This document shows, in pieces, positions 1 through 55,696 of a stretch of DNA of 64,000 bases; within the stretch, counting starts at the first letter, position 1; every line of letters begins with the position of its first letter. The stretch comes from Escherichia phage ESCO5. The notes below the pieces were generated by a model. It saw only the letters and a program-made list of their open reading frames with translations, was not told where the DNA came from and did no database searches. The translations under genes and the position numbers were made by a program. The stretch is from sequence record NC_047776.2, one strand, 5' to 3'.

Positions 1-95
1 AATGATAATTATTCTCATTCGCATGATATTTGGGAATTGTCGCTGCGTGGACCTGACGGCCCGAAAATTCGCGTTAAGCACTTCTTACGTATACG

Positions 96-338
96 CCATG
101 ATTTTTGCCATATGATACTGATTCTATTAGATATTCTTGCCATGATTGCCATGAAACATGGTGTCCCGAAATAATCTCTCCCCGTGGATATTTTGGGTTA
201 CTTTTTATACAAGAGTGGGGTGTCAAAAATAATCGGTATATATGGGATAATTGATAGGAATCCCCTATGATAAATCGATTGTAATTGCCAAAGATTGATC
301 GTATGATGTTGGTGATTGATGATTGCCATGAAAGATGG
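96..338. repeat. Cluster of CCATGATT..GCCATG-type repeats in the leader upstream of the first ORF (copies near 96-117, 150-171, 318-338)
   Basis: Near-identical 18-nt copies GATTGCCATGAAA[C/G]ATGG at 154-171 and 321-338 plus a related copy at 96-117; non-coding AT-rich leader. Confidence 0.4.
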
Positions 339-360
339 CTAACGATGAGAGGAGATTGTC

Positions 361-735
361 ATGCAAAAGAGTAAAAATGTTCCGTTGAGTAGTGCAACAT
401 TGCTTCGCTTCTATAAAGCATGGATTGCCAACTATCCTGCAATGAATCGCACAACGAGTGGCTTATGTGGTTGTCTGGTAGATTATGTAGATGATTTTGT
501 TGGTGAGACAACTAGAGAAGAAGATAGAAGATGGCGTGATCATTTGTTAGACCGTTTGAAATATGAAATGAGGAAACAATTTACATGTGCAGGGCTGGAC
601 TACAATCTTCCGTTCAATGCAGATTGCATGGATTACCTTTCAGAGTGTATAAACTTGGCGTGTCATACCAACACGTTACGTCTTCAGTGGGTGAAAGATA
701 GGATTGAAGATGCAAATAATGCTTGCATTGAATAA
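361..735 (+). CDS. Hypothetical protein; member 1 of a five-copy small-protein family
   Basis: ORF with SD GAGAGGAG upstream; shares FY..W, GLCxCL, QF..GL..PF and R..WVKDR motifs with ORFs at 4578, 7798, 11097 and 12402. Confidence 0.6.
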   Translation: MQKSKNVPLSSATLLRFYKAWIANYPAMNRTTSGLCGCLVDYVDDFVGETTREEDRRWRDHLLDRLKYEMRKQFTCAGLDYNLPFNADCMDYLSECINLACHTNTLRLQWVKDRIEDANNACIE

Positions 736-784
736 AGATGTTTGTATAATGGATGACATAACAGATAGCCAATGAGGAGATGAA

Positions 785-994
785 ATGAAGAATTTGAAAA
801 CTGTCACAATGTTCTTGACTAATCCTACACGTGTGCAAGCACTGGCTAAAGCCAGCCGTGTAGCTGTAGAATTCCAAAACTTTAAGCCGTCCGTTGTGAC
901 AGGCAGTGAAACGTGTGTTATCGATTTCATTAACGAATACTTCCGAGGGAATCCGGTTGGTCGTTACTTTATTAAGGGTCTGAAGGATGCATAA
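785..994 (+). CDS. Hypothetical protein
   Basis: ORF with SD-like GGAG upstream. Confidence 0.45.
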   Translation: MKNLKTVTMFLTNPTRVQALAKASRVAVEFQNFKPSVVTGSETCVIDFINEYFRGNPVGRYFIKGLKDA

Positions 995-995
995 C

Positions 996-1217
996 ATGAA
1001 ACGCATGAAAATTCGTATTGAGAATGATGGTGGTTATAAAGGATTGGCACATGCAAAATTTCCACTTGTGTTGGAAGCTACTGTGGAATACAGTGGGCTT
1101 GCTCATGTGCGATTCTCGAAGATGATGGAAGTGCAGGAATGGTTTTGGGACGAGATAGATGCACGAGAAGGGGAAGATTATGTTTTCTTTCCTCACGAAT
1201 ATGAAATTGTCTATTAA
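996..1217 (+). CDS. Hypothetical protein
   Basis: ORF; ATG at 996 follows upstream stop with GAAGGA SD; track start 987 is an alternative. Confidence 0.4.
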   Translation: MKRMKIRIENDGGYKGLAHAKFPLVLEATVEYSGLAHVRFSKMMEVQEWFWDEIDAREGEDYVFFPHEYEIVY

Positions 1218-1229
1218 GGGTTGTGTGCA

Positions 1230-1469
1230 ATGATCACACCACAACAGAATGAAGCAGCAATGGATCTTCTTGATAGTTTGTATTTCGATAATTGGTACTC
1301 TGAATGTGAATGGATGAATGTGCAAACTCTGAAAGAGAAGACAGAAGCGTTGATTACCGTAGATCAATTTCTTGCAGAGACGGAAAGAATGAATTATGAT
1401 ATGGCATCTCGCGCACGACGCGTTTCCATTTTCAATAAAATGTTAGCATTATGGGGAGGTAGAAAATGA
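1230..1469 (+). CDS. Hypothetical protein
   Basis: ORF; first ATG at 1230 (track start 1221 is TTG). Confidence 0.4.
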   Translation: MITPQQNEAAMDLLDSLYFDNWYSECEWMNVQTLKEKTEALITVDQFLAETERMNYDMASRARRVSIFNKMLALWGGRK

Positions 1470-1927
1470 GACAATTCACTATACTGGCAGCTTATGTGCA
1501 ATGTGTTCACGATTATGTTAGTGCTCATACAGGTGTGCTGGAAGTTACCAGTAAAATTGAAGGTAATATGGGTACTGTCTGTGTGCAACATACTTTATCC
1601 AATGTGCCGTTTAAAGTGTTCACTGTTGTAGCTGCCGATTACAATCGTGTAGATGTGCGTTTCTTGGATCATAATTTTCGTAACGCACTAGATAATATTG
1701 AAGATTATCTTCCCGTGAAACCTTTGTCATTTCCACCGAGTCGTGCAAATAATGTAGTGACAAACCTTAATGAAAGGAATGTGGCTATGCACAAAAAAGT
1801 TCGTCAATTGAAAATGCTGATGGAAATGCAAGAAGAGATTGAAAAAGAACTGAAAGAAGATTTTGGTATGCTTCCAAAAGACGCTTTGAAATGGTTTAAT
1901 GGGCTTGAAGGAGAGAGCAATGTTTAA
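1466..1927 (+). CDS. Hypothetical protein
   Basis: ORF with SD GGGGAGG upstream; overlaps upstream stop (ATGA). Confidence 0.5.
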   Translation: MRQFTILAAYVQCVHDYVSAHTGVLEVTSKIEGNMGTVCVQHTLSNVPFKVFTVVAADYNRVDVRFLDHNFRNALDNIEDYLPVKPLSFPPSRANNVVTNLNERNVAMHKKVRQLKMLMEMQEEIEKELKEDFGMLPKDALKWFNGLEGESNV

Positions 1928-2378
1928 AGAAGGTCATGTCTACCGTTTCCAGGATGAGGATTATATGCGACTATATTCTACCTTTGATAACAGTATTGCA
2001 GCTATCATTGGAGAGAATTTTTTCGAGGTGTTGAGCACTGATACAAATGGTAATGTCTTGTCAATGGTTGTAATAGGTATGAGAGACGGTATTATCACTG
2101 CTGGCGATGGGGATCGTTACATAATCAATTCTGCTCATATAGATTATTTTGTTGACGGCGGTGTTCGTGGTGGTCGTGGAAAACCCCAAGAAGAACCTGT
2201 TGATACAACAAAAGAAGAGTGGTATGTTGTAATGACTGGTGACACCTGTATTTCTGGATCTCAAAATTATGAAGAAGCTTTGAAAGAAGCAGCGGAGCAT
2301 AAAATGGCTAATCCTACAGAAGAGGTTGAAGTTTATAAACGTTTGGTTGTTGCTACCATCGGCGTATCTTTTGTTTAA
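1920..2378 (+). CDS. Hypothetical protein
   Basis: ORF; ATG at 1920 preceded by GGAGAGAG. Confidence 0.5.
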   Translation: MFKEGHVYRFQDEDYMRLYSTFDNSIAAIIGENFFEVLSTDTNGNVLSMVVIGMRDGIITAGDGDRYIINSAHIDYFVDGGVRGGRGKPQEEPVDTTKEEWYVVMTGDTCISGSQNYEEALKEAAEHKMANPTEEVEVYKRLVVATIGVSFV

Positions 2379-2390
2379 AAGGAGAATGTT

Positions 2391-2828
2391 ATGTTTAAAA
2401 TTAATGCTGTTTACTGTTTCAAAAGCAAAGCTGCATGTGAAGCTTTCTCTATGATCTCTGATGAAAATTTCAAAATGGCAGCTTTGATTGAAGGGTCTTG
2501 TTTCCGCGTCGAAGATGTTAGTGAATCAGGGTCTGTTTGCTCATTGACTTTATTGGACAGCGGGGATATTATTGAAGCTGGACAGTATCCGTTCAGGAGT
2601 TGGGAGATATTGTTAGCTCGCGGAGAGCGTAACTTTTTTATGTGTGTGTCTGCGGGGGAAGTTGTGAAAGAAACTAAGGATGTTTCTGTTTACAATTCTG
2701 AATTTATAAGTTATAGTGAGTATCAACATCTGGAAGGCATTGTTGGTCACTTGTTATCTCTGATTGACATTGAATGTGACTTGCCTGAATCATTGAAAGA
2801 AGAGTTGAAAGCATTAGATCTGCTGTAA
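2391..2828 (+). CDS. Hypothetical protein
   Basis: ORF with SD AAGGAGA upstream. Confidence 0.5.
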   Translation: MFKINAVYCFKSKAACEAFSMISDENFKMAALIEGSCFRVEDVSESGSVCSLTLLDSGDIIEAGQYPFRSWEILLARGERNFFMCVSAGEVVKETKDVSVYNSEFISYSEYQHLEGIVGHLLSLIDIECDLPESLKEELKALDLL

Positions 2829-2855
2829 TGTTCCGCACAACGAAAGGAGAATAAA

Positions 2856-3155
2856 ATGAATCTGACCGAACAGTTACGCCGTATTGCAAAAGAAGCTTCC
2901 TTCAACTTCCCTGTTGAAGAAGTGATCGAGACATGTTTTGCTGAAGCACGAGCGGGAAACTCTTCAAGAAATTTCACGCCATCTGATTTTGGTCTGGATA
3001 ATTCCCCTACCCACCCAGGGGAGATCTACAATCAGGTGAAGTGGATGGATGAAGCAGTAGCAATTCTTCGTGAGCGTGGGCTTATTGTTTATAAAGAAAT
3101 GGATCTGAACGGGGCATACGAGTGGATCACTATTGATTGGTCGGAGGTGAAATAA
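2856..3155 (+). CDS. Hypothetical protein
   Basis: ORF with SD AAGGAGA upstream. Confidence 0.5.
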   Translation: MNLTEQLRRIAKEASFNFPVEEVIETCFAEARAGNSSRNFTPSDFGLDNSPTHPGEIYNQVKWMDEAVAILRERGLIVYKEMDLNGAYEWITIDWSEVK

Positions 3156-3364
3156 TGGTTACTATCACATTGACAGTTACACAAGAGCAAGCAGAAGAAT
3201 TACGTGATGCAGTGGCATACATGGGACGCTCTTATTATATGCCTTATAAATCACAAGATGTTTTTGCTACAGCCATTGAGAAAGCTTTAAACAAATATCG
3301 AGAAACTCATGCCGTTCCTAAAGTATCAGCAGAAGAGTTTGGCACTTGGCACGAAGTTCACTAA
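3155..3364 (+). CDS. Hypothetical protein
   Basis: ORF; ATG at 3155 preceded by GGAGGTGA. Confidence 0.45.
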   Translation: MVTITLTVTQEQAEELRDAVAYMGRSYYMPYKSQDVFATAIEKALNKYRETHAVPKVSAEEFGTWHEVH

Positions 3365-3374
3365 GGAGGTATCG

Positions 3375-3608
3375 ATGAAAGGTAACAAGATGAAAGTTAA
3401 TCAGGTACCGAGCGCATACACTTTGTGGCTTGCGCGAGCGTTAAACCAGACGATCAAAAATCCTAAGAAGCCAATGAAGAGTGGGAAGAAGTTTATGTCT
3501 AAGGGCAAAGCAACCTTTGGCTTCACTCGTATGTCTGTTAAGATGAAAAGGCTGGGGTATAAGCCAAACTACGCTCGTTACCCTTCCGAATACAACTGGT
3601 TTGACTAA
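3375..3608 (+). CDS. Hypothetical small basic protein
   Basis: ORF; ATG at 3375 preceded by AAGGAGG; Lys/Arg-rich. Confidence 0.45.
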   Translation: MKGNKMKVNQVPSAYTLWLARALNQTIKNPKKPMKSGKKFMSKGKATFGFTRMSVKMKRLGYKPNYARYPSEYNWFD

Positions 3609-3623
3609 AGAGGAGAACAAAAC

Positions 3624-3842
3624 ATGAAAACATCTATTCGCGTGAAACATGATCCGAACAGCAGTTACCCATACGTGTATGTTGAACGTCATGAAGGTGA
3701 CTATTACACCATAAAACGTAAAGTCCCAACTGATACAGGGTTTAACTTTGATGTTATTGCACTGGATGATCAAGGTGTTGATAATCTGGTGAATGCATTA
3801 CTCGCATTGAAGGAAGTACGATATGAAAATCAGACTAATTGA
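3624..3842 (+). CDS. Hypothetical protein
   Basis: ORF with SD AGAGGAGA upstream. Confidence 0.5.
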   Translation: MKTSIRVKHDPNSSYPYVYVERHEGDYYTIKRKVPTDTGFNFDVIALDDQGVDNLVNALLALKEVRYENQTN

Positions 3843-4014
3843 AAAGGGTGATACCATCTTCGAAACCCGTAAAGGGGAGATCACAGAGATTCCAGAAGAA
3901 CGATCAACAATCCTTGTAAATGGTGTTTTGAAATATTGCTGTAGTGTCTACAAATCTTACGAGAAGGATCAGTATGGCGATCCAGAAATCTGGTTTGTAG
4001 GCGATGTGTATTAA
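3823..4014 (+). CDS. Hypothetical protein
   Basis: ORF overlapping the end of the upstream gene. Confidence 0.4.
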   Translation: MKIRLIEKGDTIFETRKGEITEIPEERSTILVNGVLKYCCSVYKSYEKDQYGDPEIWFVGDVY

Positions 4015-4025
4015 GGAGGGGTAAA

Positions 4026-4385
4026 ATGAGCGGAGAGTTTCGTAAAGTAAAAAATATCCCTTTGTTTGAAGGAGATGTTGTTAGAATCAATGGAAGGTTG
4101 TTGAAATTTCACCAATTGATGTATCCAAGCACAACACGCAATGTGATGGTGATCTTCCAGGACGCTTTTGCTGCCAGCGATTACACTCCGTATTCAGCAG
4201 AAACCGAAGTATATTTTGAAGGATATGTTGATCGACCACTTGCAAAAGAGATGTGGGACAAGTATCATATAAACATTACAGATTCACGGGGTGTCTTCTG
4301 GAACTACCCTGGCGAAGGTAAGGTGGCTTTCGATTCTTGTGATCGTTTAGCCGAAGAGATTGCCGAATGGCGTGATACTCACTAA
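4026..4385 (+). CDS. Hypothetical protein
   Basis: ORF with SD AAGGAGGGG upstream. Confidence 0.5.
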   Translation: MSGEFRKVKNIPLFEGDVVRINGRLLKFHQLMYPSTTRNVMVIFQDAFAASDYTPYSAETEVYFEGYVDRPLAKEMWDKYHINITDSRGVFWNYPGEGKVAFDSCDRLAEEIAEWRDTH

Positions 4386-4400
4386 AACAGGAGAAAGATT

Positions 4401-4577
4401 ATGGCTACTTTTCGACAACTGAAAGATGTTTCACGTTTAGTAAGAAAAATCCGAGAAGCAGACGCTGCTGTGCGAAATGCGCTAACGCCAGCAGAGCGTG
4501 AAGATCTTGAAGAGGAGGTGAAAACAGCCGAGAATGCTTTTGCTGCGTATCTTTCAACACTGCACACAGGAGGTTAA
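4401..4577 (+). CDS. Hypothetical small protein (58 aa)
   Basis: ORF below the track cutoff; SD CAGGAGA upstream; fills the gap between neighbouring genes. Confidence 0.4.
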   Translation: MATFRQLKDVSRLVRKIREADAAVRNALTPAEREDLEEEVKTAENAFAAYLSTLHTGG

Positions 4578-4892
4578 ATGTCAGAGGAACTTAAAGAATT
4601 TTATCAGGCATATCATAACTGGCTGTTAGCTGGTGCTCCAGATAATAATCCTTTCTGGCATGATAAAGGGTTATGTAGTTGCCTCTATCTTTGGTCTGGT
4701 GGTTATGATGACCTAAATTATGAAATGCAAATGCAATTCCGCGAAGCAGGTTTGTCTGAAGAATACCCGTTTGATGATGGGGATTGGTTTAAATATGATT
4801 TTGCACAAAGAAACGGGCTGCTACATTTGAATGCTGCTCGTATAAAATGGGTAAAAGATCATGCCACACAGGAGGGTGTGCAATGCCTATAG
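4578..4892 (+). CDS. Hypothetical protein; member 2 of the five-copy family
   Basis: ORF with SD CAGGAGG; shares GLCSCL, YPF and IKWVKDH motifs with the family. Confidence 0.6.
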   Translation: MSEELKEFYQAYHNWLLAGAPDNNPFWHDKGLCSCLYLWSGGYDDLNYEMQMQFREAGLSEEYPFDDGDWFKYDFAQRNGLLHLNAARIKWVKDHATQEGVQCL

Positions 4893-5083
4893 TGTTAGTT
4901 TTCTTGGCGATTGTTATGGTAGTTCTTTTCGCTGCATGGCTTTGGGATTTTGACCCAGGAGCCGCGCAGCAAAGAGCTACAGACTTGAAAGAACAATGTA
5001 TTGTGCTCAAACATGAACGAAATGCGGAGAAATTTCTTGACCTGGAGTGTGATCGCCTTGTAAGATACAAGCAAGATAAATAA
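4883..5083 (+). CDS. Small membrane protein
   Basis: ORF; ATG at 4883 after AGGAGGG; hydrophobic N-terminal segment. Confidence 0.45.
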   Translation: MPIVLVFLAIVMVVLFAAWLWDFDPGAAQQRATDLKEQCIVLKHERNAEKFLDLECDRLVRYKQDK

Positions 5084-5097
5084 CCTTGAGGTGCAAA

Positions 5098-5286
5098 ATG
5101 GTAATTGAGATTAAACTTGAATATGCTTGGGCTGTTGCCTTGATCGCACAAATGCTTGGAGCAAAGATTGAAGAAGTGTATATCAACGCCTGGAGCGTAG
5201 AGATTGATGTTCCTATGGACAACATTGCTAATCGCTTGCTGGTGGCAGAGTGTGAACGCACCAACATAATCTACAAAGGAGCATAA
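5098..5286 (+). CDS. Hypothetical protein
   Basis: ORF; ATG at 5098. Confidence 0.4.
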   Translation: MVIEIKLEYAWAVALIAQMLGAKIEEVYINAWSVEIDVPMDNIANRLLVAECERTNIIYKGA

Positions 5287-5287
5287 T

Positions 5288-5509
5288 ATGAAAATTAGAG
5301 TTTGTGATGTATTGGGTTATGTTGGTTTTGAGAATGTTCAGATTCCTTTTGTTGTTGAAGCACATCTTGTTAGTGAGGATATGACAACATTCTTTGTTAC
5401 GATAGAAGAAATGTCCAAAGTTGAGGGATGGGAGTGGTTTGAAGAAGATGTTTGGGAAGGTTGTGATTACGTATTTTTCTCTGACGAAGTGAATGTTCTT
5501 GCGGAGTAG
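5288..5509 (+). CDS. Hypothetical protein
   Basis: ORF with SD AAAGGAG upstream. Confidence 0.5.
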   Translation: MKIRVCDVLGYVGFENVQIPFVVEAHLVSEDMTTFFVTIEEMSKVEGWEWFEEDVWEGCDYVFFSDEVNVLAE

Positions 5510-5511
5510 GT

Positions 5512-5718
5512 ATGTCTTGTTTTACAAAAGCAGTATCCATATGTAAGAAACAGTATGAAAGTGATTATGGAATATTTAATATTCCAGTAGACCATACAGT
5601 GTATTGTTCATGTGGTGGCAGAATGAAGAAAACAGTGATTTATGCGGATAATGGAGATGAACTTGTTCCAGTTATGGTTTGCAAAGCTTGTCATTCTGTT
5701 AAAACATTAAAAGCGTAA
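5512..5718 (+). CDS. Cys-rich small protein (zinc-ribbon-like)
   Basis: ORF; two Cys pairs (CSCGG...CKAC). Confidence 0.45.
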   Translation: MSCFTKAVSICKKQYESDYGIFNIPVDHTVYCSCGGRMKKTVIYADNGDELVPVMVCKACHSVKTLKA

Positions 5719-5813
5719 GGAGTCGGGACACCCGACGATTGGAGCTAAAAATTTTGCGTACAACCCTTTCCGCCCAACAGGGGCGCGTCGGGTAAATAAA
5801 GAGGAGAGTTTAT

Positions 5814-6212
5814 ATGAAAAAGATCATCGTAGGTTTCTTGTTACTCATTGCATCACTTGGAACAGCAAGTGCGTCTCAAGTTTATGAGTGTGTGTCAGAT
5901 GTGGTTGTTAAAAATCTGAAAGGTGAAGTGATTTCTGGTCCTAAGAAAATGGCTTCTGTTATCATTAATAAAGATAACTCCTTTATCCTTAAAAATTCGG
6001 GTGGTGCTTTGATGAGTGGCATTCTGCAATACACAGGAGAAAAAAGTAAAGATGGTAGTGCTATGTACGGTTCACAACAGTTTATTGGCACTACTGAAGT
6101 TGTGATGATGCGCACAGAGTATCGAGACACTTTGGCTTGGTTTGCATTTCTAAAAAATGATAAAACAATAACGAATGTTCTTACTCTAGAAGCTGATTGC
6201 ACGCAACGATAA
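5814..6212 (+). CDS. Secreted or periplasmic protein
   Basis: ORF with SD AGAGGAGAG; N-terminal signal peptide MKKIIVGFLLLIASLGTASA. Confidence 0.55.
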   Translation: MKKIIVGFLLLIASLGTASASQVYECVSDVVVKNLKGEVISGPKKMASVIINKDNSFILKNSGGALMSGILQYTGEKSKDGSAMYGSQQFIGTTEVVMMRTEYRDTLAWFAFLKNDKTITNVLTLEADCTQR

Positions 6213-6221
6213 GGGGTATTT

Positions 6222-6668
6222 ATGACTAAAATGAGACATTATGCTGTAAACTGCAACGATGTTTGGCGTTTGTGTCCTGATGATCCGACAGAAGGCACAT
6301 TTGTAAGATATGAGGATTATAAAGAGTTATCAGATGCTGTGATCGCATTGTTAACTGATATCCGTTCACGTTATCCAGGACAAGATTTCACTTGCCCTCA
6401 CATCAAACTTCTTGCTTGTCTGGTAGAAGGTGAGAAAGAAGTGGAAGATGGCTTCAAGCGTGTAGAGTATCAAGGTGAAACTTTAGAGGTTCCTGAATTT
6501 GTTAATTATATTGCAACAGATTCGAGTGGCGAGCGTTATGGCTACAGCCATAAGCCAGAGATTCCTGATTGGATTCCCGCTTGGAGATATTCCGTTAGTA
6601 CCGGAGACTATATCTTCCTTGGTGTAGGTAGTAGTAAGGATTGGCGTTTCTCTTTGACAGAGGTTTAA
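6222..6668 (+). CDS. Hypothetical protein
   Basis: ORF with SD AAGGGG upstream. Confidence 0.5.
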   Translation: MTKMRHYAVNCNDVWRLCPDDPTEGTFVRYEDYKELSDAVIALLTDIRSRYPGQDFTCPHIKLLACLVEGEKEVEDGFKRVEYQGETLEVPEFVNYIATDSSGERYGYSHKPEIPDWIPAWRYSVSTGDYIFLGVGSSKDWRFSLTEV

Positions 6669-6672
6669 TAAT

Positions 6673-6936
6673 ATGAAAGAGACATTGCCAGCAGCATACC
6701 GTTTGAATGATGAACGTATTTGGGAGTGGACCGACGTTTCTTGTTTTTACCCTGAAATAGTTCAATATTGGCGAGCGAAAGGGTGTGTTGTAGTTATCAA
6801 CCCTTGTGGACCAGTAGATGAAGATTGCTTGTATCTCGATGGAAAGTGGCACAGTTATTGTCGCTGGCCTTTTGAGTGGATGTGTAAAGAAGATCTCCCA
6901 GAGGGTTGGGAGTATCCAAAAGCAAATAGGAGATAA
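6673..6936 (+). CDS. Hypothetical protein
   Basis: ORF closely following the upstream gene. Confidence 0.45.
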   Translation: MKETLPAAYRLNDERIWEWTDVSCFYPEIVQYWRAKGCVVVINPCGPVDEDCLYLDGKWHSYCRWPFEWMCKEDLPEGWEYPKANRR

Positions 6937-6937
6937 T

Positions 6938-7300
6938 ATGTCTAAAGATTTTGTTGAAGTGTTTGTCAAAGACGAAGAAACTGGTTTAGGCACAGGTTTC
7001 ATTTGTGAAGAAACCTTTAAGCGTGAACAAGAAAAAGCTATTCTTATGCGAAACTATGATCACGCATTAGAACAATGGAAAAATGCAGAACAAAAATGCA
7101 AAAACCTTTATGCAGAAAATAGAAAACTACAAGATCAAATGGAGTTGTTAGCTATCAGTTTACGATCTCTCATTTTGGCTGTAGAAGATGGTTTTAAAAA
7201 TCCAGATGGTTTTCCTGTGAGCGATATTGAACATGATTTGTATCTTGCTCGTGGTGCTTACTTTTATGTTAAACAGAAGTCTGTAGAAGGAGAGAAGTGA
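6938..7300 (+). CDS. Hypothetical protein
   Basis: ORF; ATG at 6938 preceded by AGGAGA. Confidence 0.45.
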   Translation: MSKDFVEVFVKDEETGLGTGFICEETFKREQEKAILMRNYDHALEQWKNAEQKCKNLYAENRKLQDQMELLAISLRSLILAVEDGFKNPDGFPVSDIEHDLYLARGAYFYVKQKSVEGEK

Positions 7301-7497
7301 TGGAAGAAAAACTGGAACGTATTATCGAGTTAGCCATGTCTATTGGCTACGACGATTGTTTTATCCAAACTATTGGAGAAACACAGAACGATTACGACTC
7401 TTGGGTGAAAGAGTTGGAAGAACTCAAAACTTCCTTGATTGCTGACTTTGCTTACGCAGAGAATAAAGCAGATCGTTACAACTATCTGTGTCGATAA
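7297..7497 (+). CDS. Hypothetical protein
   Basis: ORF overlapping the upstream stop (ATGA). Confidence 0.4.
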   Translation: MMEEKLERIIELAMSIGYDDCFIQTIGETQNDYDSWVKELEELKTSLIADFAYAENKADRYNYLCR

Positions 7498-7500
7498 ACC

Positions 7501-7528
7501 TTGACATTTATTTTATGTATGGTATACA
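7501..7528 (+). promoter_or_regulatory. Sigma70-like promoter (TTGACA, 16-17 nt spacer, TATACA)
   Basis: Consensus -35 hexamer with a plausible -10, about 30 nt upstream of the ORF at 7560. Confidence 0.45.
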
Positions 7529-7559
7529 TACATTATCAACGTGAGCAAGGTGGTGTAAT

Positions 7560-7832
7560 ATGAATAAAGATCGGTTTCTTTCTTTAGTCGCGGAAGCGCC
7601 TTTTGATGTTCTTGGGGTGAGATTATGGAAAGACAGAAACTATGGGTTAGATGTTCAAACATATTCTCTTTGGTTGGTTGGGGAGCACAGCTTAGATGAA
7701 AGCTTGTGCATGGGTAGGGATTCTCGTTCCCTTTGTTTAAAGTTCAGAAGCTTAGAACGCGCAAACAAAGAGCAAGAAAAACTAACGAGGTGGCTAAATG
7801 AAAACAAGCACAGGGTTGATGGAGTTTTATAA
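7560..7832 (+). CDS. Hypothetical protein
   Basis: ORF with SD AAGGTGG upstream. Confidence 0.45.
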   Translation: MNKDRFLSLVAEAPFDVLGVRLWKDRNYGLDVQTYSLWLVGEHSLDESLCMGRDSRSLCLKFRSLERANKEQEKLTRWLNENKHRVDGVL

Positions 7833-8124
7833 AATTTATCTAGCATGGATTGATGTTGGTGCTCCTGATGGTAAACCTTTTCGGCGGGATTGTGGTTTGT
7901 GTGCCAACTTGTTCGATTATGTGCACAGAGGTAATTACAACCCCATTATAACAACCTTGTCAGATGAAATGCACGCACAGTTTTACCATAAAGGGTTGAA
8001 TCAAGGACTCCCTTTCAATGAGAACTACGATGCATATGTCTTAGAGTCAGATGCAGATGCCTGTCACCTGAACGTGGACAGAATTAATTGGGTAAGAGAT
8101 CGTATTGCAGAGGAGGATGAATAA
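7798..8124 (+). CDS. Hypothetical protein; member 3 of the five-copy family
   Basis: ORF with SD GAGGTGG; shares GLCANL, LPF and INWVRDR motifs. Confidence 0.6.
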   Translation: MKTSTGLMEFYKIYLAWIDVGAPDGKPFRRDCGLCANLFDYVHRGNYNPIITTLSDEMHAQFYHKGLNQGLPFNENYDAYVLESDADACHLNVDRINWVRDRIAEEDE

Positions 8125-8351
8125 TGTCGGATTATAACTGGTATGAACTTGAAGCTGTTTGTCAGTTTTATGATTCAATAGTTCTACGTGATCCAATCTG
8201 TCAAGAATTGAGTCGCCGTGCAAGTGCATTGGCAATCCGTGTTAAAATAAATGGTTGGAACCCAGACTTGGAAAAAGAGTTGGAATTTCTCTTAGAAACA
8301 ACACGTGTCTTCCACAAAGTGTTCCCTGAATGGTTCGAGATGGAAGAATGA
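8124..8351 (+). CDS. Hypothetical protein
   Basis: ORF; ATGTCG start overlaps the upstream stop. Confidence 0.45.
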   Translation: MSDYNWYELEAVCQFYDSIVLRDPICQELSRRASALAIRVKINGWNPDLEKELEFLLETTRVFHKVFPEWFEMEE

Positions 8352-8569
8352 TCATGTGGATTGTACGTCTTAAATATGATGGCCCTGATCCTTGGGTGCA
8401 TAACGTTTGCGGTTGTGATTCCGAAGAAGCAGCACATAAAGCAGGAAGAGCAGCAAGTGCCTTCTATAATGACAAACCTTTTTGTTTAGAAATGGCAGGT
8501 GTGGTTTGTATGAGCATGTTCGAATACTACTCTTATGAAATCAAAGAACACCAAGGGGAATGGAAATAA
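8348..8569 (+). CDS. Hypothetical protein
   Basis: ORF; ATG at 8348 overlaps the upstream stop (ATGA). Confidence 0.4.
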   Translation: MIMWIVRLKYDGPDPWVHNVCGCDSEEAAHKAGRAASAFYNDKPFCLEMAGVVCMSMFEYYSYEIKEHQGEWK

Positions 8570-8573
8570 ATCG

Positions 8574-8602
8574 TTGACAGAAGGATCTGTCTTTGTCATA
8601 AT
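8574..8602 (+). promoter_or_regulatory. Sigma70-like promoter (TTGACA, 17 nt spacer, CATAAT)
   Basis: Consensus -35 and near-consensus -10 upstream of the ORF at 8632. Confidence 0.5.
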
Positions 8603-8631
8603 CATCTCATCGAAACAAAGAGGAGAAAATC

Positions 8632-9045
8632 ATGAAAAAGTTTATTTGCACCCGTTCCACTAACAGTGATATCCTTGTAGGTAAGGTTATCAAAGGAGAA
8701 CTCTTCCATGCAAATGGTAAGAAATATATTCTGCTGAAAGATTCTTTCAACGGGGAATATCCGCGCTGCACTTTCTTCAATTACAACACTCCATTTGCTT
8801 TAGAAGGAGATGCTTGGGAATGGGCTGAACTCAATCCTTGTTATGAGGAAGAAGAATCTATGTTCTTAGGTTTAAACGTTTACCGTGTAGATTACACCAT
8901 GTGCGGAGCGGAACATTCTGTTCGCGTAGAAGCCGAATCCAAACTACAAGCACCTTTCAAGGCAGGATTGACTTTGGGTCATTGTTTGGCAAACATTGAA
9001 GATGTTGTGATCCAAAGAGTTGTTTTAGAGAAAGAGGCTATTTGA
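8632..9045 (+). CDS. Hypothetical protein
   Basis: ORF with SD AGAGGAGA upstream. Confidence 0.5.
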   Translation: MKKFICTRSTNSDILVGKVIKGELFHANGKKYILLKDSFNGEYPRCTFFNYNTPFALEGDAWEWAELNPCYEEEESMFLGLNVYRVDYTMCGAEHSVRVEAESKLQAPFKAGLTLGHCLANIEDVVIQRVVLEKEAI

Positions 9046-9099
9046 CAGAAGACGGTACAATATTTAAAATATAAAGATTAACCACAAAAGGAGAGAAAC

Positions 9100-9399
9100 A
9101 TGCAAGTTGAAGACCTGACCAAGATTCTGAATAAAGCCAAAGAGAAGGGTGCTATCAAAGACTGGAAACGTGAAACAAGTGAAGATTTATCTCATTGTTG
9201 TCGAGAATTTTACATTGAAGGTATTGCTAACGATCATTATACTATTGAATGGTATATTAACTTAATGACTCTTAAACACGGTTCATTTGAGGTTTGGTTT
9301 GATGACATTGATGTAAATGGTTTTCATCCTGGCTATAAAATCGCTATGCAGTTATCTTATCGTAGAGAAGTTGTAGCACATTTGGGTTTACATAACTAA
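9100..9399 (+). CDS. Hypothetical protein
   Basis: ORF with SD AAAGGAGAG upstream. Confidence 0.5.
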   Translation: MQVEDLTKILNKAKEKGAIKDWKRETSEDLSHCCREFYIEGIANDHYTIEWYINLMTLKHGSFEVWFDDIDVNGFHPGYKIAMQLSYRREVVAHLGLHN

Positions 9400-9409
9400 G
9401 GAGAAAAGA

Positions 9410-9733
9410 ATGCAAGCAGTTGTTAACGAAGCTATTATGAACTTATCCTTCTTGTTAGCTGGTTTAGGAGGTGTTCTCATAGGTTTGGCTCTTATCTGGT
9501 GTATTCGTCGATTAATCGGGTACCGACAAAAAGGTGTTTCATGTTTTGTATCTTACAATTTTACAACTGCTTACAGCAATGAGGTTGGATCTGGTAATGC
9601 TCAAGCATTTTTACCAACATATCCTCCTACGGTGGAAGATATTCGAAACTTGGAAGTAGAACTTATGGGACTAAGTGATAACTATACATCTCTCGTTATT
9701 CAAAATATTTTTCGACTAAAACAGGAGGCGTGA
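9410..9733 (+). CDS. Membrane protein
   Basis: ORF with SD AAGGAGA; hydrophobic N-terminal helix. Confidence 0.45.
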   Translation: MQAVVNEAIMNLSFLLAGLGGVLIGLALIWCIRRLIGYRQKGVSCFVSYNFTTAYSNEVGSGNAQAFLPTYPPTVEDIRNLEVELMGLSDNYTSLVIQNIFRLKQEA

Positions 9734-9946
9734 ATGAAGGCACATTACCCTCATCCCTTTGATCCTAAAAACAAAGCCGTAATTCTTCGTCAGTGGCAAC
9801 GGGTTTGTCGTACTAAATGTCCAATTAATAGCCAACACAATGTGGACAAGGATTATCTTGGGACATTTGTTGAATACACTTACATAGACAAAAACAAGCG
9901 TAAACAACATGTCGAGGAATACTGCTTAAAAGTAGAATGGCTGTAA
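9734..9946 (+). CDS. Hypothetical protein
   Basis: ORF with SD CAGGAGG upstream. Confidence 0.4.
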   Translation: MKAHYPHPFDPKNKAVILRQWQRVCRTKCPINSQHNVDKDYLGTFVEYTYIDKNKRKQHVEEYCLKVEWL

Positions 9947-9958
9947 ATAATAAATACC

Positions 9959-9987
9959 TTGACAAGTGTTTATTCGTTTTGTAAAGT
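9959..9987 (+). promoter_or_regulatory. Sigma70-like promoter (TTGACA, 17 nt spacer, TAAAGT)
   Basis: Consensus -35 hexamer upstream of the recombinase gene. Confidence 0.5.
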
Positions 9988-10016
9988 GAGAATACAGCAA
10001 TGGTTTAGGAGTGGTT

Positions 10017-10688
10017 ATGAAAAAGTTTGTTGTTTACAGTCGTCTTTCTAAACAGAAAAAAGGTGAGGCACAATATGGTATGGAGAGCCAAGAGAACGAT
10101 ATCCGTTACTTCTTAGACTCTGTGCCTGATGCTGAAGTTATTGGTCAATTTTCTGAATACTATTCGGGTAAGGGCGATTGGAAGCAACGTAAGGAACTGG
10201 TTAAAGCGGTTGAAATGTGTAAAGCTACCGGAGCAACTTTATTGGTAGCTAAAGTTGACCGCTTGGGTCGTAACAACGCCTCCGTAGCAACTCTTCTAGA
10301 GATGATCGATGTTAAGATAGCCATCATGCCAGACGCAGATAAAATGGTTATACAACTTCTATCTGTTCTGGCTGAACAAGAAGTTAGAGGTATTGCTGAT
10401 CGCATTAAAAAGGGTCTTGCTGTAGCAAAAAGTAAAGGTGTTTTATTAGGCAGTGCTAATCCTAAAACTGCTGCTGCACGTAGAAAAGGAAAAATGGAAT
10501 ACAATTCTGTTAAAGCAGACGCTTTTGCAGAGACATTCCGTGAACGCTTAGAAATCCTTAGAGATTTAAATACACCTTACAAAACTATTGCTGAAAAATT
10601 CAATAGTAAGAAAATCGCAACAGCACGTGGTGGTAAGTGGGATGCTAAAACTGTTTCTCGCTTGTGTGCTAGATTGAACATTAAATAG
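10017..10688 (+). CDS. Small serine recombinase (resolvase/invertase type)
   Basis: N-terminal YSRLS catalytic-serine motif and VDRLGRN motif; C-terminal helix-turn-helix; SD AGGAG before ATG 10017. Confidence 0.7.
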   Translation: MKKFVVYSRLSKQKKGEAQYGMESQENDIRYFLDSVPDAEVIGQFSEYYSGKGDWKQRKELVKAVEMCKATGATLLVAKVDRLGRNNASVATLLEMIDVKIAIMPDADKMVIQLLSVLAEQEVRGIADRIKKGLAVAKSKGVLLGSANPKTAAARRKGKMEYNSVKADAFAETFRERLEILRDLNTPYKTIAEKFNSKKIATARGGKWDAKTVSRLCARLNIK

Positions 10689-10696
10689 GAGAGGAT

Positions 10697-11107
10697 ATGA
10701 AACAAGAAAATGAATCTGTAGATCACTTAATCATGCTGTCAGCCCTTTTTGCCGGATGGGAGGTATTTTTTGAAAATTTGTTCAATTCTGCTACAGATGG
10801 TTCTGATTTTATGCGCCAATTTAAACGACGAACTGTTGAGGACTATACTTTCTATTCAGGTCGGATTGAAAAAGGTTACGAAGATATAGATACAGTACTT
10901 ACAATTAAAGTTTTAGATGTGATGTTTAGTGTTATAGATGCTATCGATGAAAGTCTTCCGATTTTAGAAGATTGTAATACGAAAGCTTATGTTTACAAAA
11001 TAGCCCGTGCTTATGTGTCTGCAAACAGTTGTCTTCTTTCCACCCAGATTGCGGTGAACAATCTTGCCAACTTGTTCGATGAAGGAGAAACTTTTTATGA
11101 CAATTGA
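10697..11107 (+). CDS. Hypothetical protein
   Basis: ORF with SD GGAGAGGA upstream. Confidence 0.45.
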   Translation: MKQENESVDHLIMLSALFAGWEVFFENLFNSATDGSDFMRQFKRRTVEDYTFYSGRIEKGYEDIDTVLTIKVLDVMFSVIDAIDESLPILEDCNTKAYVYKIARAYVSANSCLLSTQIAVNNLANLFDEGETFYDN

Positions 11108-11462
11108 TTTGAAGTGTAAGAGGATTCTTTTAGATTTCTATAATAATTGGTTAGAACACCTCCGTCTCTTTCCACGAGAAAGTGGTTACGCTAATGTTGG
11201 CTTATGCCGAGGTCTACGTATGTATATAAGTGATGAATTTCGAGCCGATCATTCTTTAGCATATTCTGTTTATGGTATGCAATTAGCCAGTTTTGAAAAT
11301 GCTGGTTTAGATACAACTTTCCCGTTTAACACAGCAAAATCTTTTGAGCAAGAGTGTAAGGAAAAACGTTGCATGTTTAATGAAAAACGTGTACAGTGGG
11401 TTAAGGATCGAGTTAAACAACTGGAACAAGAGTTGGATTTCTTTTATGACGAGGCAGAATAA
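11097..11462 (+). CDS. Hypothetical protein; member 4 of the five-copy family
   Basis: ORF; shares GLCRGL, FPF and VQWVKDR motifs; start taken at ATG 11097. Confidence 0.55.
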   Translation: MTIDLKCKRILLDFYNNWLEHLRLFPRESGYANVGLCRGLRMYISDEFRADHSLAYSVYGMQLASFENAGLDTTFPFNTAKSFEQECKEKRCMFNEKRVQWVKDRVKQLEQELDFFYDEAE

Positions 11463-11734
11463 TGGATAGACAAACCTTAAAAACAATGGCAGATGCTACT
11501 AATTCCCCGTACTTTGAAAAAGTAAGTAAATTGGTAGTTCAAGCCGCAGAGGAAGGATATTATAACATAAACATCCACAACCCAAATCTTATACTAGAAA
11601 TGCCAAGTGATAAGAAGATACAAGAGAGTATCTGTGAAGGTATTGTTAGTTACTGGCGCGAGCGTGGGTGTGGTGCAAACATGGCTTTAGACAGTGCAAA
11701 CATTGTAAGATATATAAATATTTCTTGGGGGTGA
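11462..11734 (+). CDS. Hypothetical protein
   Basis: ORF abutting the upstream stop. Confidence 0.45.
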   Translation: MDRQTLKTMADATNSPYFEKVSKLVVQAAEEGYYNINIHNPNLILEMPSDKKIQESICEGIVSYWRERGCGANMALDSANIVRYINISWG

Positions 11735-11738
11735 TTTT

Positions 11739-12350
11739 ATGATTCAATGCACTCATATCCAAATTACTTGGAGAGATGAACTTTACCATTTGGGACAATT
11801 TACTGTAGGGGAAACATACCCTGTCATTAAACATAATCCTAACATCGCAAACTTTGACAGGATGGTTCTTGTTGAGGACGATCTAGGTCAAACTTATTCT
11901 TTAGATCTAAAATATCCGTTTTCTTACGGCTACGATTGGATCGTTACTTTTGAAGACGTGGAGGAAAATAAAACAATGAACGAAAAAAATTCTTGGTATT
12001 ATCGTTGTGAACTGCCGCCAGTAGGTGAAAAGGTTATCTTTGTTCCTGATTTGGAAAGATATTCTTGGGACAGTTCTTATTCTGTTCCTAAAGAAGGCAC
12101 CGAAGTTGAAGTTATTGCACATCGCACAACTTCGCATGGTAACGATGTAGCAGTTGTTTTCTGGGATGATGAAGGCGCTGCTTGTGCAGGTGGCTTTGTT
12201 GCAGGTAATTTTGAACCCCTGCCAGATCCTTTGAAGGAGGCAATTTTAGGCGTAGCTTCTTTTGGACTCTCTTACACATCTGCACAGGAGATCGTAGAAG
12301 GTATTTTAAACGGTACCGTTCCAAACGAAATTTTCAAACAGATTAAATAA
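11739..12350 (+). CDS. Hypothetical protein
   Basis: 203-aa ORF. Confidence 0.5.
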   Translation: MIQCTHIQITWRDELYHLGQFTVGETYPVIKHNPNIANFDRMVLVEDDLGQTYSLDLKYPFSYGYDWIVTFEDVEENKTMNEKNSWYYRCELPPVGEKVIFVPDLERYSWDSSYSVPKEGTEVEVIAHRTTSHGNDVAVVFWDDEGAACAGGFVAGNFEPLPDPLKEAILGVASFGLSYTSAQEIVEGILNGTVPNEIFKQIK

Positions 12351-12401
12351 CAGTTGCACCCCGTTCTTCGGGGTGTTATTGTATACGTAAAGGAGGAGAT
12401 A

Positions 12402-12740
12402 ATGTATTACACTGAAGACTACATACTGTATAACTTTTTTAAAGGCTGGTTGAAATGGGCTGAACAAGCTCCTGTCGGAGATTGTGTTTTTCCTTGGGAT
12501 TCTCGTCAAGGTTTGTGTCGTTGTTTGGAAGATTGGCTTATAACCACAAACTACAACTCAGAAACTAAGAAATCTACATCACAGAGACTAAAAATGTTAT
12601 TTGAAGAAGATGGTTTAGATCCTATTTATCCTTTCGGTGAGGAAAGTTTCCACAATGGTCTTTTCCTTGGCACTCAACATTATGATAAAGATCGTGTAGA
12701 TTGGGTAAAAGAAAAGGTAGCACAGTATGAATGGGGTTAA
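12402..12740 (+). CDS. Hypothetical protein; member 5 of the five-copy family
   Basis: ORF; ATG at 12402 after AAGGAGGAG; shares GLCRCL, YPF and VDWVKEK motifs. Confidence 0.55.
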   Translation: MYYTEDYILYNFFKGWLKWAEQAPVGDCVFPWDSRQGLCRCLEDWLITTNYNSETKKSTSQRLKMLFEEDGLDPIYPFGEESFHNGLFLGTQHYDKDRVDWVKEKVAQYEWG

Positions 12741-16901: not shown

Positions 16902-17132
16902 GTGTTAAATAAAATCGAAGAAGGTTGTATGGCATTTTTGGTAGATAACCCGTTTCCCTTTATGGTTAAGGTCCATGTAGGAGAGTATTTAGGTTATGAC
17001 GAATGGGATTGTAGTATCAATAGTGAAATGCACCACTACCAACCAACAATACTTAAGACGGATCAAATGGCGCGTATTACAGTAGAGGATGAATTGATCA
17101 TTGAGTTATACGAGAGAGCACTACACAAGTAA
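16902..17132 (+). CDS. Hypothetical protein
   Basis: ORF; GTG start at 16902 after TAGGAGG, alternative ATG at 16929. Confidence 0.4.
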   Translation: MLNKIEEGCMAFLVDNPFPFMVKVHVGEYLGYDEWDCSINSEMHHYQPTILKTDQMARITVEDELIIELYERALHK

Positions 17133-17173
17133 GCTAGAACCCACCTAAATCGAACAGAGACGCTCTAAAATAG

Positions 17174-17205
17174 AAAAGGCACCCACTTGGGTGCCTTTGT
17201 TTTAT
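17174..17205. terminator. Bidirectional terminator at the convergence point of the plus and minus blocks
   Basis: GGCACCC-ACTT-GGGTGCC hairpin flanked by an A-run upstream and a T-run downstream. Confidence 0.65.
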
Positions 17206-17474
17206 TCTTCGTTAGATTGCGTTTCAGACGCGTTAAATTCGGTTTCAGTGCAACTTGCTAGGTAACTTATGTTTCGCATCACTACAACTACAGGTGTTTG
17301 AAGTTTATCTTCTAGCCCAGCAGCCACTTGAGCCAAGGCATTATCAATATTTGATTTCCTAACACCTGTTCCATGCCCTGTTGCCAAGTAAAGATTACCT
17401 TCCCCTTTTTGTGTAGCATTAGCAAAGTAGTAAACGTAATGTGCAAGGTAGTAATCACGGATTTCTTCAGTCAT
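17202..17474 (-). CDS. Hypothetical protein
   Basis: ORF with SD AGGAG upstream. Confidence 0.45.
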   Translation of the reverse strand: MTEEIRDYYLAHYVYYFANATQKGEGNLYLATGHGTGVRKSNIDNALAQVAAGLEDKLQTPVVVVMRNISYLASCTETEFNASETQSNEE

Positions 17475-17485
17475 TTTGTTCTCCT

Positions 17486-17508
17486 AATAAGAAAGGGGCC
17501 GAAGCCCC
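17486..17508 (-). terminator. GGGGC-UUCG-GCCCC hairpin (terminator or processing site)
   Basis: Identical hairpin recurs at 29551-29564 and 36043-36056. Confidence 0.5.
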
Positions 17509-17517
17509 TTGAGTGGT

Positions 17518-18318
17518 TTATTTGTTTAAATGGTCTTCAACCATTTTGATAAAGCCTTCATCACTGAAGACTGTCCCTGCTTTCTCTCGGTAGACAAGCA
17601 CTCCACGTTCTTCGTAGAGAGTTTGTTCTACAAAATTCAAACCTGGGTTAACTACAACCATCTTAACCCCAATATTCAGGGCAGGGAAAAGTTCCCAATT
17701 GAAGTTGATAACTTGATTAGAGCAGCCCACAACGATAACCATGTCTTGAGCAGTTAGCGTGTCGAGGATTTGGTACATGTCGGTGTAGAACGGAGCATTT
17801 TCACCAAAAAACACCACGTTAGGTTTCACGTACTTGTAATCATCTACATCAATAGCAGCATAACCTACATCTTTGATGATTCGATTGTCTACAATCACTT
17901 CAGGCAGGAAGCCGTGAACATGCAGAACATCTTCATGAACAACACCTGCTTGTTCCAGAAGATCATCTACGTTTGTTGTGATGTTGATAACACGTTCACA
18001 ACCGTACTCTTGGAACCATTCCGCGATCTGGTAATGCGCAGCGTTAGGAGACACGCTATCCATCTCTACGCGACGTTTATTGTAGAAGTCGTGAGTTTTA
18101 CGGTAGAGGTTGTATCCCTCTGCATCTAATCCGCCAACAGCCCCAGGAACACACTGTTCTTGTTGGTATCCAGCACGGAAGTTGAAAATGTCGCATACTT
18201 CAGAGAGGTCATATTCGTCCCACAAAGCTTTACCGCTTGTGGTATCGGTGCGGAAAGTACGTACACCACTATCGGCGCTTAGACCAGCGCCGCTGATCAC
18301 TATTAATCGTCTTGGCAT
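17518..18318 (-). CDS. Sir2-family NAD-dependent deacetylase / ADP-ribosyltransferase-like protein
   Basis: GAGLSADSGVRTFR, TTNVDDL, HG and FFGE motifs typical of sirtuins. Confidence 0.6.
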   Translation of the reverse strand: MPRRLIVISGAGLSADSGVRTFRTDTTSGKALWDEYDLSEVCDIFNFRAGYQQEQCVPGAVGGLDAEGYNLYRKTHDFYNKRRVEMDSVSPNAAHYQIAEWFQEYGCERVINITTNVDDLLEQAGVVHEDVLHVHGFLPEVIVDNRIIKDVGYAAIDVDDYKYVKPNVVFFGENAPFYTDMYQILDTLTAQDMVIVVGCSNQVINFNWELFPALNIGVKMVVVNPGLNFVEQTLYEERGVLVYREKAGTVFSDEGFIKMVEDHLNK

Positions 18319-20162: not shown

Positions 20163-20568
20163 TACCCCTCCATTCAAGACAAGCCATAACTTTACGCCAA
20201 TCACTTTCTGTAAGAAAAATCTCGTTTGCTTTCTTCCACAAATCTAGATCGTGAAGGGTTGGAATACGATATGTTAGTTCACAGAATCTATGTTCTTCTT
20301 CTGTAATATAACCAAAATGCAAAGCCACATCGTGAAACCAACACCAACCATGCATCTCTCGAACAACATGATCATGTTGAGACATTATTTTATGCCGTAA
20401 ACCTAACCAACAAGGAACAGATACTTTAGTAGTCTTTAATCTGTGATCAACAGTATTAGAGTATTCAATAATAGCTGTCAATTTCAATCGTGCTTTTTCT
20501 AAATCCTCATGCGTCACTTTGAAATAACTTTCTGAAAGATATCCACACATATTAATAACCTCCTTCAA
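20155..20568 (-). CDS. Hypothetical protein
   Basis: 137-aa ORF. Confidence 0.45.
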   Translation of the reverse strand: MKEVINMCGYLSESYFKVTHEDLEKARLKLTAIIEYSNTVDHRLKTTKVSVPCWLGLRHKIMSQHDHVVREMHGWCWFHDVALHFGYITEEEHRFCELTYRIPTLHDLDLWKKANEIFLTESDWRKVMACLEWRGNE

Positions 20569-33771: not shown

Positions 33772-33780
33772 CAGTTCTCC

Positions 33781-36723: not shown

Positions 36724-36734
36724 CTGTTCTCCTA

Positions 36735-55688: not shown

Positions 55689-55696
55689 GAGGAACA

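Follow-up and report, generated by a model that had tools for sequence, protein, structure and literature searches.

An N4 gp3-related, phage-only domain occurs in five old, selected copies in the small-gene block of Escherichia phage ESCO5

We analysed 64,000 nucleotides of Escherichia phage ESCO5 (record NC_047776.2, one strand, 5′ to 3′; hereafter the window), in which a first-pass annotation had singled out five scattered open reading frames (ORFs) as copies of one family of small proteins. All five exist at the coordinates then given, the coding-sequence calls of near-identical phages in GenBank agree with them, and each is labelled 'hypothetical protein' in those records. They are real, old and selected copies of one widespread domain that is found only in phages. 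Named c1 to c5 by position, and each beginning with an ATG start codon, they are as follows:

c1, positions 361..735, + strand: 124 amino acids, PHROG 2510 match at E 2e-25
c2, positions 4578..4892, + strand: 104 amino acids, PHROG 2510 match at E 6e-29
c3, positions 7798..8124, + strand: 108 amino acids, PHROG 2510 match at E 8e-32
c4, positions 11097..11462, + strand: 121 amino acids, PHROG 2510 match at E 3e-26
c5, positions 12402..12740, + strand: 112 amino acids, PHROG 2510 match at E 4e-27

A Shine-Dalgarno sequence lies 5-10 nt upstream of every one of the five, and the start codon of c2 directly abuts the stop codon of the preceding gene. In pairwise BLASTP comparisons the proteins are 23-38% identical, with E values from 1e-19 (c2/c3) to 2e-4 (c1/c5), and when each was compared by phmmer with the 665 six-frame ORFs of the window the matches were family members only, the single exception being the c1/c5 pair, which is joined by BLASTP (E = 2e-4). 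A profile built from the five recovers exactly these copies, the search made with it for a sixth copy in the 64-kb window found none, and in an all-against-all BLAST they form the largest paralogue family of the window. The MAFFT alignment keeps one register throughout, and 16 of its columns are invariant (F of 'FY', G-L-C, L, F, G-L, P-F and R..W-V belong to these), which bears out the assignment to one family with shared motifs in conserved positions. The ordered set of motifs originally listed stands, with corrections of detail: the third residue of the stretch that begins at the Cys is C, N or G (c4 reads GLCRGL), c4 and c5 lack the Gln of 'QF', and c5 has Phe for the Tyr of 'FY'. At the DNA level the in-register similarity among c1-c5 is limited to patches of 20-37 nt at the conserved motifs, and because nothing more than these patches survives, the duplications must be old, in agreement with the earlier description of the copies as diverged and not recent duplicates.

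Each of the five aligns along its entire length with PHROG 2510, an entry of 'unknown function' (E 1e-25 to 1e-32); there are weaker matches to PHROGs 6418, 27059 and 2176. The five carry in register the motif set of the PHROG 2510 family: L..FY, G-L-C, (E)M..QF..AGL....PF(N) and (H).N..R..WV. PHROG 2510, with these three satellites, is thus the family to which c1-c5 belong; its record holds no function, structure or description, and neither the paralogue expansion, nor the Cys/Arg site, nor the recombination behaviour reported below is part of it. The statement that no known domain could be recognised holds in the sense that no characterised domain is present, yet the family was already catalogued, N4 gp3 included. 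Sequence searches of Pfam, NCBIfam, PADLOC and the Protein Data Bank (PDB) with single proteins, the five-member profile and fused or distant members gave no match, and neither did 73 diverse members, each alone or as a joint profile; the PADLOC defence models returned just two noise-level hits (E about 0.02).

The family extends far beyond this group of phages. With c3 as query, tblastn matched 255 phage records, including Phapecoctavirus, Justusliebigvirus (phi92-like), N4 (gp3), Akira, PTXU04 and others, N4-like phages of Achromobacter, Erwinia, Delftia, Rhizobium and Klebsiella, and T7-like phages of Ralstonia and Burkholderia. An exhaustive search of 1.84 billion cluster representatives with the family hidden Markov model (HMM) recovered 1,470 clusters (50% identity) at E<=1e-3 and 481 at E<=1e-10. 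Every member that bears a name is a phage protein, hypothetical or uncharacterised, and the one match in a plasmid search was a phage-plasmid. Virulent phages of Proteobacteria carry the domain in 1-8 copies, in genomes of 40 kb (podoviruses) up to 260 kb (jumbo phages) and always in an early or left-end block, and it occurs as single genes, tandem arrays and in-frame fusions. Chains of 2-3 domains make up 20 of 150 representatives among the matches listed (13%), those of Citrobacter phage Tr1 and of the jumbo phages BcepSaruman and BcepSauron being examples, and in one lineage the domain is fused to DUF551.

Among the named relatives, gp3 of phage N4 (ABK54374.1) is a homologue of c3 (tblastn 32% identity, E 3e-7; family HMM E 1e-20 to 7e-17). 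It has the same size and early position as the window copies and is closest to c3, and it deviates from the family at several positions (L7F, F10D, E57S and Q61L); N4 has one copy where the ESCO5 window has five. A literature search returned no published function for it. The gene has gp2 to one side and, to the other, the RNAPII genes gp15/16, whose products are early (PMC4496689). Across N4 gp1-gp14, homologues that can be detected in every one of Achromobacter phage Axy10, Rhizobium phage Y2_6 and Delftia phage RG-2014 are limited to those of gp2, gp3 and gp14, and both RNAPII subunits are likewise detectable in all three phages; the position of the gp3-family gene is not syntenic among these N4-like early regions. 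The early ORF gp14 (4148-4528 of the N4 locus) is better conserved than gp3, with 52-61% identity across distant N4-like subfamilies. In JG068 the family member gp5 lies between annotated host promoters and an early terminator, and an early or genome-end location is also found in Akira, PTXU04 and the N4-like phages.

Structure prediction with AlphaFold2 gave a confident model of c3 with five helices (predicted local distance difference test score, pLDDT, 92.8; predicted template-modelling score, pTM, 0.86), and its comparison with solved structures found no structural relative. The five proteins are acidic (isoelectric points, pI, 4.6-5.7), which argues against nucleic-acid binding. Residue conservation was scored over 199 domains from diverse clusters. 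The conserved hydrophobic core consists of L7, F10, Y11, L34, L38, F62, L67, P72-F73, W98 and V99, and it is accompanied by a set of polar positions led by C35 and R95 (99% each), followed by S4 (93%), N92 (92%), Q61 (84%), E57 (82%), E83 (76%), N74 (72%) and H90 (70%). In the c3 model C35 is the second residue of helix 2, and the N-terminus of a helix is the classic place of activated thiols, as in thioredoxin, papain and the protein tyrosine phosphatases. R95, W98 and R/H102 make a stripe on helix 5, while S4, N74 and N92 directly precede helices 1, 4 and 5 and are replaced chiefly by D, S or G. E57 and Q61 are retained or lost jointly (odds ratio 34, a value confounded by sequence relatedness).

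Three known arrangements were considered for these residues and rejected. As a family feature, a structural zinc or Cys-rich metal site is contradicted by the conservation pattern, in which only C35 is invariant, C37 (21%) and C89 (45%) occur independently of each other (p=0.73) and all four candidate ligands are found together in 19/199 domains. A HEPN RNase is at odds with the order of the motif, H-x-N-x-x-R and thus opposite to R-x(4-6)-H, and with the lack of a HEPN match in Pfam or among folds. A thiol-disulfide oxidoreductase or AhpD-like protein does not fit either: there is no CxxC, CxC is present in only 21% of domains, and no such fold or Pfam match was obtained. In a model of the two-domain fusion from Citrobacter phage Tr1 each domain is confident and the mutual orientation is uncertain (pTM 0.64), and no fixed dimer geometry is therefore predicted.

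The five copies have kept different parts of this pattern. G33, L34, C35, P72, F73, R95, W98 and V99 are present in all of them. The most canonical copy is c3, which carries every family-conserved residue and is the closest of the five to the single copies in N4, JG068 and Akira; c1 retains all 24 scored family positions except N37C and has the full C-x-C...C-H set, with 7 Cys. N74 (D) and E83 (A) are missing from c2. S4, E57, Q61 and H90 (M) have been lost from c4, which keeps C35, P72-F73, N92, R95, W98 and V99. The most divergent copy, c5, is altered at S4D, Y11F, E57R, Q61L, N74G, E83G and N92D and keeps C35, P72-F73, H90, R95, W98 and V99.

The first-pass proposal that selection maintains several variants is supported by the ratios of nonsynonymous to synonymous change (dN/dS, Nei–Gojobori, NG86) between the window copies and their relatives: every lineage is under purifying selection, with 0.02-0.12 for c2, c4 and c5 and, on small counts, 0.14-0.57 for c1 and c3. 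By copy, dN/dS is 0.02-0.03 for c2 (98-99% identical in vB_Ec-G1, phAPEC8_ev052 and ZCKP1), 0.06-0.12 for c4 (98-99% conserved in relatives), 0-0.09 for c5 (97-100% conserved), 0.15-0.46 for c1 and 0.14-0.57 for c3. Selection thus runs opposite to canonicity, as the degenerate c2, c4 and c5 are near-frozen and the canonical c1 and c3 are looser. All five are positional orthologues across Phapecoctavirus, and c1 and c3 are exchanged as alleles between relatives: in Klebsiella phage ZCKP1 both are swapped for alleles that are 49-51% identical while the flanking genes are 91-99% identical (51% for the c3 allele, 91-93% for its flanks). Metagenomic alleles of the c1 locus are constant at their ends and hypervariable in between: identity is 93-97% over the 17 C-terminal residues, 33-50% over residues 42-65 and around 60% over residues 85-105. 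We give virtually no credence to the notion that the shared motifs arose by chance or that the ORFs are not genes; it is refuted by pairwise E values down to 1e-19 with hits confined to the family, the PHROG match and the 1,470 homologous clusters, the Shine-Dalgarno sites, and dN/dS far under 1.

Five copies are indeed found in the window, but the number itself is derived, and relatives hold 3-8. HMM scans found 5 family copies in vB_Ec-G1, 6 each in phAPEC8_ev052 and ZCKP1, 8 in phiWec190, 3-4 in the phi92-like ECGD1 (one of them frameshifted), 3 adjacent copies in PTXU04 and 1 in N4-like phages. The c1-type copy of ECGD1 (10978-11380 of the locus) is split over two frames, either as a pseudogene or through a sequencing frameshift. 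The c1 locus of ESCO25 is occupied by a tandem pair of genes that overlap, 00244 and 00245, and since such pairs are present in ESCO25, ev052, phiWec190 and ZCKP1 alike, the tandem pair is ancestral. By blastn, window positions 1-393 align to ESCO25 up to the first 11 codons of 00244 and positions 380-857 to 00245 from about codon 5, and these two target regions lie 328 nt further apart in ESCO25 than in the window, the 328 nt corresponding to one missing gene unit. The two alignments overlap at one feature:

Positions 380..393, + strand: recombination junction inside c1, 14 nt (codons 7-11, VPLSS) common to both parental alignments

The crossover lies within the microhomology TTCCGTTGAG.AGT; the promoter-proximal end and codons 1-11 of c1 come from a 'c0' paralogue of the ESCO25_00244 type and the remainder from the c1 paralogue of the ESCO25_00245 type. 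As judged from these alignments, c1 is a deletion hybrid of two tandem paralogues whose reading frame is intact and fully canonical; together with the ancestral tandem pair, this makes 'five copies' a derived state. Copy number shifts through recombination between the conserved terminal segments, and c1 is such a product.

The first 13 kb of the window are 96-98% identical to Phapecoctavirus genomes (Stephanstirmvirinae) such as ESCO25, Mt1B1_P17, ukendt and phAPEC8_ev052, which are 150-kb E. coli myoviruses; the closest relative is ESCO25, at about 97% identity. From position 1 to about 17 kb extends a + strand block of about 45 small ORFs, in which c1-c5 are spread over 12 kb among about 35 other genes. 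They stand apart from a − strand nucleotide-metabolism module (Sir2-like, PhoH, NrdA/B, thymidylate synthase and DNA ligase) and from the late modules, the window also holding the large terminase and portal genes. Layout and relatives suggest that the small-ORF block is early, a timing assigned by position only. Directly upstream of the first family copy four relatives have an unannotated stretch of 1.5-2 kb, and positions 1-360 of the window begin inside such a stretch:

ESCO25, 133714-135175 (locus 19715-21176): unannotated stretch upstream of the first copy
Relative L004, 4354-5934: the same
Relative L005, 5334-6874: the same
Relative L006 (ECGD1), 8899-11016: the same

Further features of the window are listed here by position:

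987-1217 and 5288-5509, + strand: second two-copy paralogue family, proteins of ~75 amino acids (BLASTP E 2e-10)
10011-10688, + strand: serine recombinase gene (Pfam Resolvase N-terminal domain, E 5e-18)
12356-12376, + strand: G+C-rich stem-loop of 8 pairs (6 G-C) followed by T-rich sequence, in the 51-nt gap before c5
30496-31344 and 32782-33780, − strand: paralogue pair (BLASTP E 1e-6)
36067-36741 and 53005-53613, − strand: paralogue pair (BLASTP E 8e-21)
56193-58204, + strand: cluster of ten tRNA genes (Met x2, Arg, Ser, Asn, Thr, Gly, Gln, Pro, Ile)

The two small paralogues at 987-1217 and 5288-5509 share MKIR...EDYVFF-type motifs and have no Pfam match. In several near-identical GenBank records the recombinase gene is labelled 'methionine ABC transporter ATP-binding protein', in others resolvase or DNA invertase, and the former label looks like a propagated misannotation. 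The stem-loop before c5 may mark the end of a transcription unit or be an element of RNA stability or processing. The tRNA cluster coincides with a local G+C peak (0.44), and the GC skew of the window flips sign at ~17000-18000 and ~54000-56000, matching the switches from the + strand small-ORF block to the − strand nucleotide-metabolism module and on to the + strand tRNA/late module. Some public records give two + strand neighbours of the family, 1899-2378 and 2391-2828, the name 'goF mRNA metabolism modulator' or 'RNA metabolism moderator'; goF-type labels have no backing from Pfam on either gene, and BLAST does not link the two genes to each other at E<=1e-4. In vB_Ec-G1 an additional 786-nt gene (2891-3676 of its locus) is inserted between the two. 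As an identity for c1-c5 the goF label was rejected, since it sits on these neighbouring genes and lacks Pfam support there.

Among known systems, PTXU04 offers the closest parallel in arrangement. Its gp85-gp87, whose membership was confirmed by HMM, are multi-copy and lie in an early genome-end block like the window copies, but they are adjacent where the window copies are scattered; gp87, gp86 and gp85 (2572-3416 of the locus) run head-to-tail with overlapping stops and starts. They are the only family members with genome-wide knock-down data, and in the CRISPRi-ART screen of PTXU04 gp85, gp86 and gp87 appear in neither the Fit nor the Semi-Fit lists (10.1101/2023.09.18.558157, Suppl. Text S5). 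Each of the three is therefore individually dispensable on the laboratory host, although redundancy among them is possible. Apart from these lists, a literature search on Phapecoctavirus paralogues, N4 gp3 and early-gene screens returned no functional data on the family. Ocr, ArdA, Acb2, Tad1/2, Gam, AsiA and other known effectors are likewise small, acidic and early, sit in variable accessory blocks and show flux of copies and alleles, a likeness in genomic behaviour only. Unlike most of them, the present family has a near-invariant Cys and Arg and spans many phage families and host classes, and comparison with solved structures (the DNA mimics Ocr and ArdA, the sponges Acb2 and Tad, Gam, AsiA and anti-CRISPR proteins) revealed no similarity of sequence or fold.

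The reading we favour, while holding it tentatively, makes the domain an early, accessory effector and lets it bind one or more host components through a constant site centred on Cys and Arg and through variable specificity segments, represented here by two canonical, exchangeable copies and three fixed, divergent ones. Such a protein would be cytoplasmic, non-essential and host-directed, and would act by stoichiometric binding. Its rigid helical core would display the constant site, formed by Cys35 at the N-terminus of helix 2, Glu57/Gln61 on helix 3, His90/Asn92, and Arg95/Trp98 at the start of helix 5, while the most variable parts, the helix 2-3 loop and the helix 4 region, would tune specificity. 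The canonical c1 and c3 would retain the original task and follow a partner that varies; c2, c4 and c5, because they have lost parts of the site and yet are tightly conserved, may have acquired fixed, different partners by subfunctionalisation. Candidate partners would be host takeover targets or defence proteins. That each copy aims at a different host factor or defence protein, as the first-pass annotation had supposed, is plausible, and the constant core with hypervariable central segments, the allele replacement at c1 and c3, the flux in copy number and the dispensability of the PTXU04 homologues all count for it. Several observations weigh against this reading. A pure binder would not usually keep one Cys and one Arg at 99% across some 200 diverse domains, and such conservation suggests chemistry or ligand binding. 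Together with the other polar residues, near-invariant Cys35 and Arg95 speak against a purely strain-specific counter-defence role, as does the retention of the gene in three distant N4-like subfamilies where almost all other early ORFs have been replaced; gp3 being one of only three small N4 early ORFs kept in three distant Schitoviridae subfamilies, a core function suits it better than an arms race specific to strains. S4, N74 and N92 may be merely helix caps in the model. Faster evolution of the family than of neighbouring genes is not evident, the entire block being mosaic, and a scan of the window for consensus promoters and terminators gave counts not above the shuffled background, leaving early timing to position. 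The effector role itself we infer from genomic and sequence features.

The same invariant residues could belong to a minimal enzyme or small-molecule binder, for instance a sponge that sequesters a signalling nucleotide of the host, or a modifier that depends on a thiol, in which a reactive Cys35 works with Arg95, Trp98 and Glu57/Gln61 and the altered sites of c2, c4 and c5 bind other ligands or serve as non-catalytic partners. The conservation of C35, R95, E57, Q61, H90 and N92, the place of C35 in helix 2, the joint retention or loss of E57 and Q61, the broad host range of the carriers, which suits a universal ligand, and the conservation of the gene in the Schitoviridae early core all favour this. 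We nevertheless regard it as rather unlikely: His90 is replaceable (Y, M, W, F), hence a classical Cys-His pair is absent; an enzyme that is all-helical and has just 100 residues would be small; known sponges do not typically reach 8 copies in a genome; and the copy conserved best, c5, is without five of the polar positions. Retention among N4-like phages can also be read as service to the phage's own early programme, with the domain assisting, for example, early/middle transcription, replication start-up or genome internalisation as a cofactor or chaperone, and with each extra copy of large myoviruses adapted to another phage partner. Of the first 17 genes, N4-likes of E. coli, Achromobacter, Rhizobium and Delftia have in common only gp2 (the RNAPII cofactor), gp3, gp14 and both RNAPII subunits, and c2, c4 and c5 are under strong purifying selection. 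This account is doubtful, as the carriers (N4-like, T7-like, rV5/phi92-like, PTXU04, Akira and the jumbo phage BcepSaruman) have unrelated transcription and replication strategies and no common phage partner is evident, the gene is not syntenic in N4-like early regions, and the PTXU04 copies are individually dispensable, though redundancy could hide a role. A metal- or cluster-binding redox protein, whose Zn, Fe-S or Cu is ligated by Cys35 and His90, with Cys37 or Cys89 added in some members, and perhaps between the subunits of a dimer, would account for the multiple paralogues, the overlapping tandem pairs at the c1 locus of relatives and the fusions among the matches listed, and c1 has the full ligand set; with C35 the sole invariant ligand, the independent occurrence of C37 and C89, and the lack of a predicted dimer geometry in the two-domain model, we consider it quite improbable.

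A broader proposal can also be put forward. The N4 gp3-like domain might represent a kind of early phage effector not recognised before, one whose fold is its own and whose cysteine is reactive; it could modify targets as a minimal thiol-dependent protein or bind a small molecule or signal that is universal among hosts, with c1 and c3, swapped as alleles, as modules competent in catalysis or ligand binding and c2, c4 and c5 as degenerate, fixed modules that perhaps pair with them. Pairing is hinted at by the tandem gene pairs and by the in-frame 2-3-domain fusions elsewhere. We hold this proposal to be speculative and unlikely.

The sequences are public and the family is catalogued, and c1-c5 are a member set of the multi-copy accessory early-gene families of large virulent phages. 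As far as the literature was searched, the following appears to be new: that the family connects to N4 gp3 and the Schitoviridae early core, that its fold has no solved relative, that a Cys/Arg pair is invariant in it, that the copies split into canonical and degenerate ones, and that c1 arose by recombination. At present this is a well-described uncharacterised family and no new mechanism. Large virulent coliphages of the phAPEC8, rV5 and phi92 groups serve in therapy cocktails, and their early blocks are almost wholly unannotated; the largest paralogue set of one such block is here tied to classic model phages through N4 gp3 and T7-like early genes, and the c1 hybrid provides a clean example of how copies are gained and lost in such families. 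The structure and partner of the family would be new information under any of the explanations above, and work on it in N4 or PTXU04 could annotate >1,400 protein clusters.

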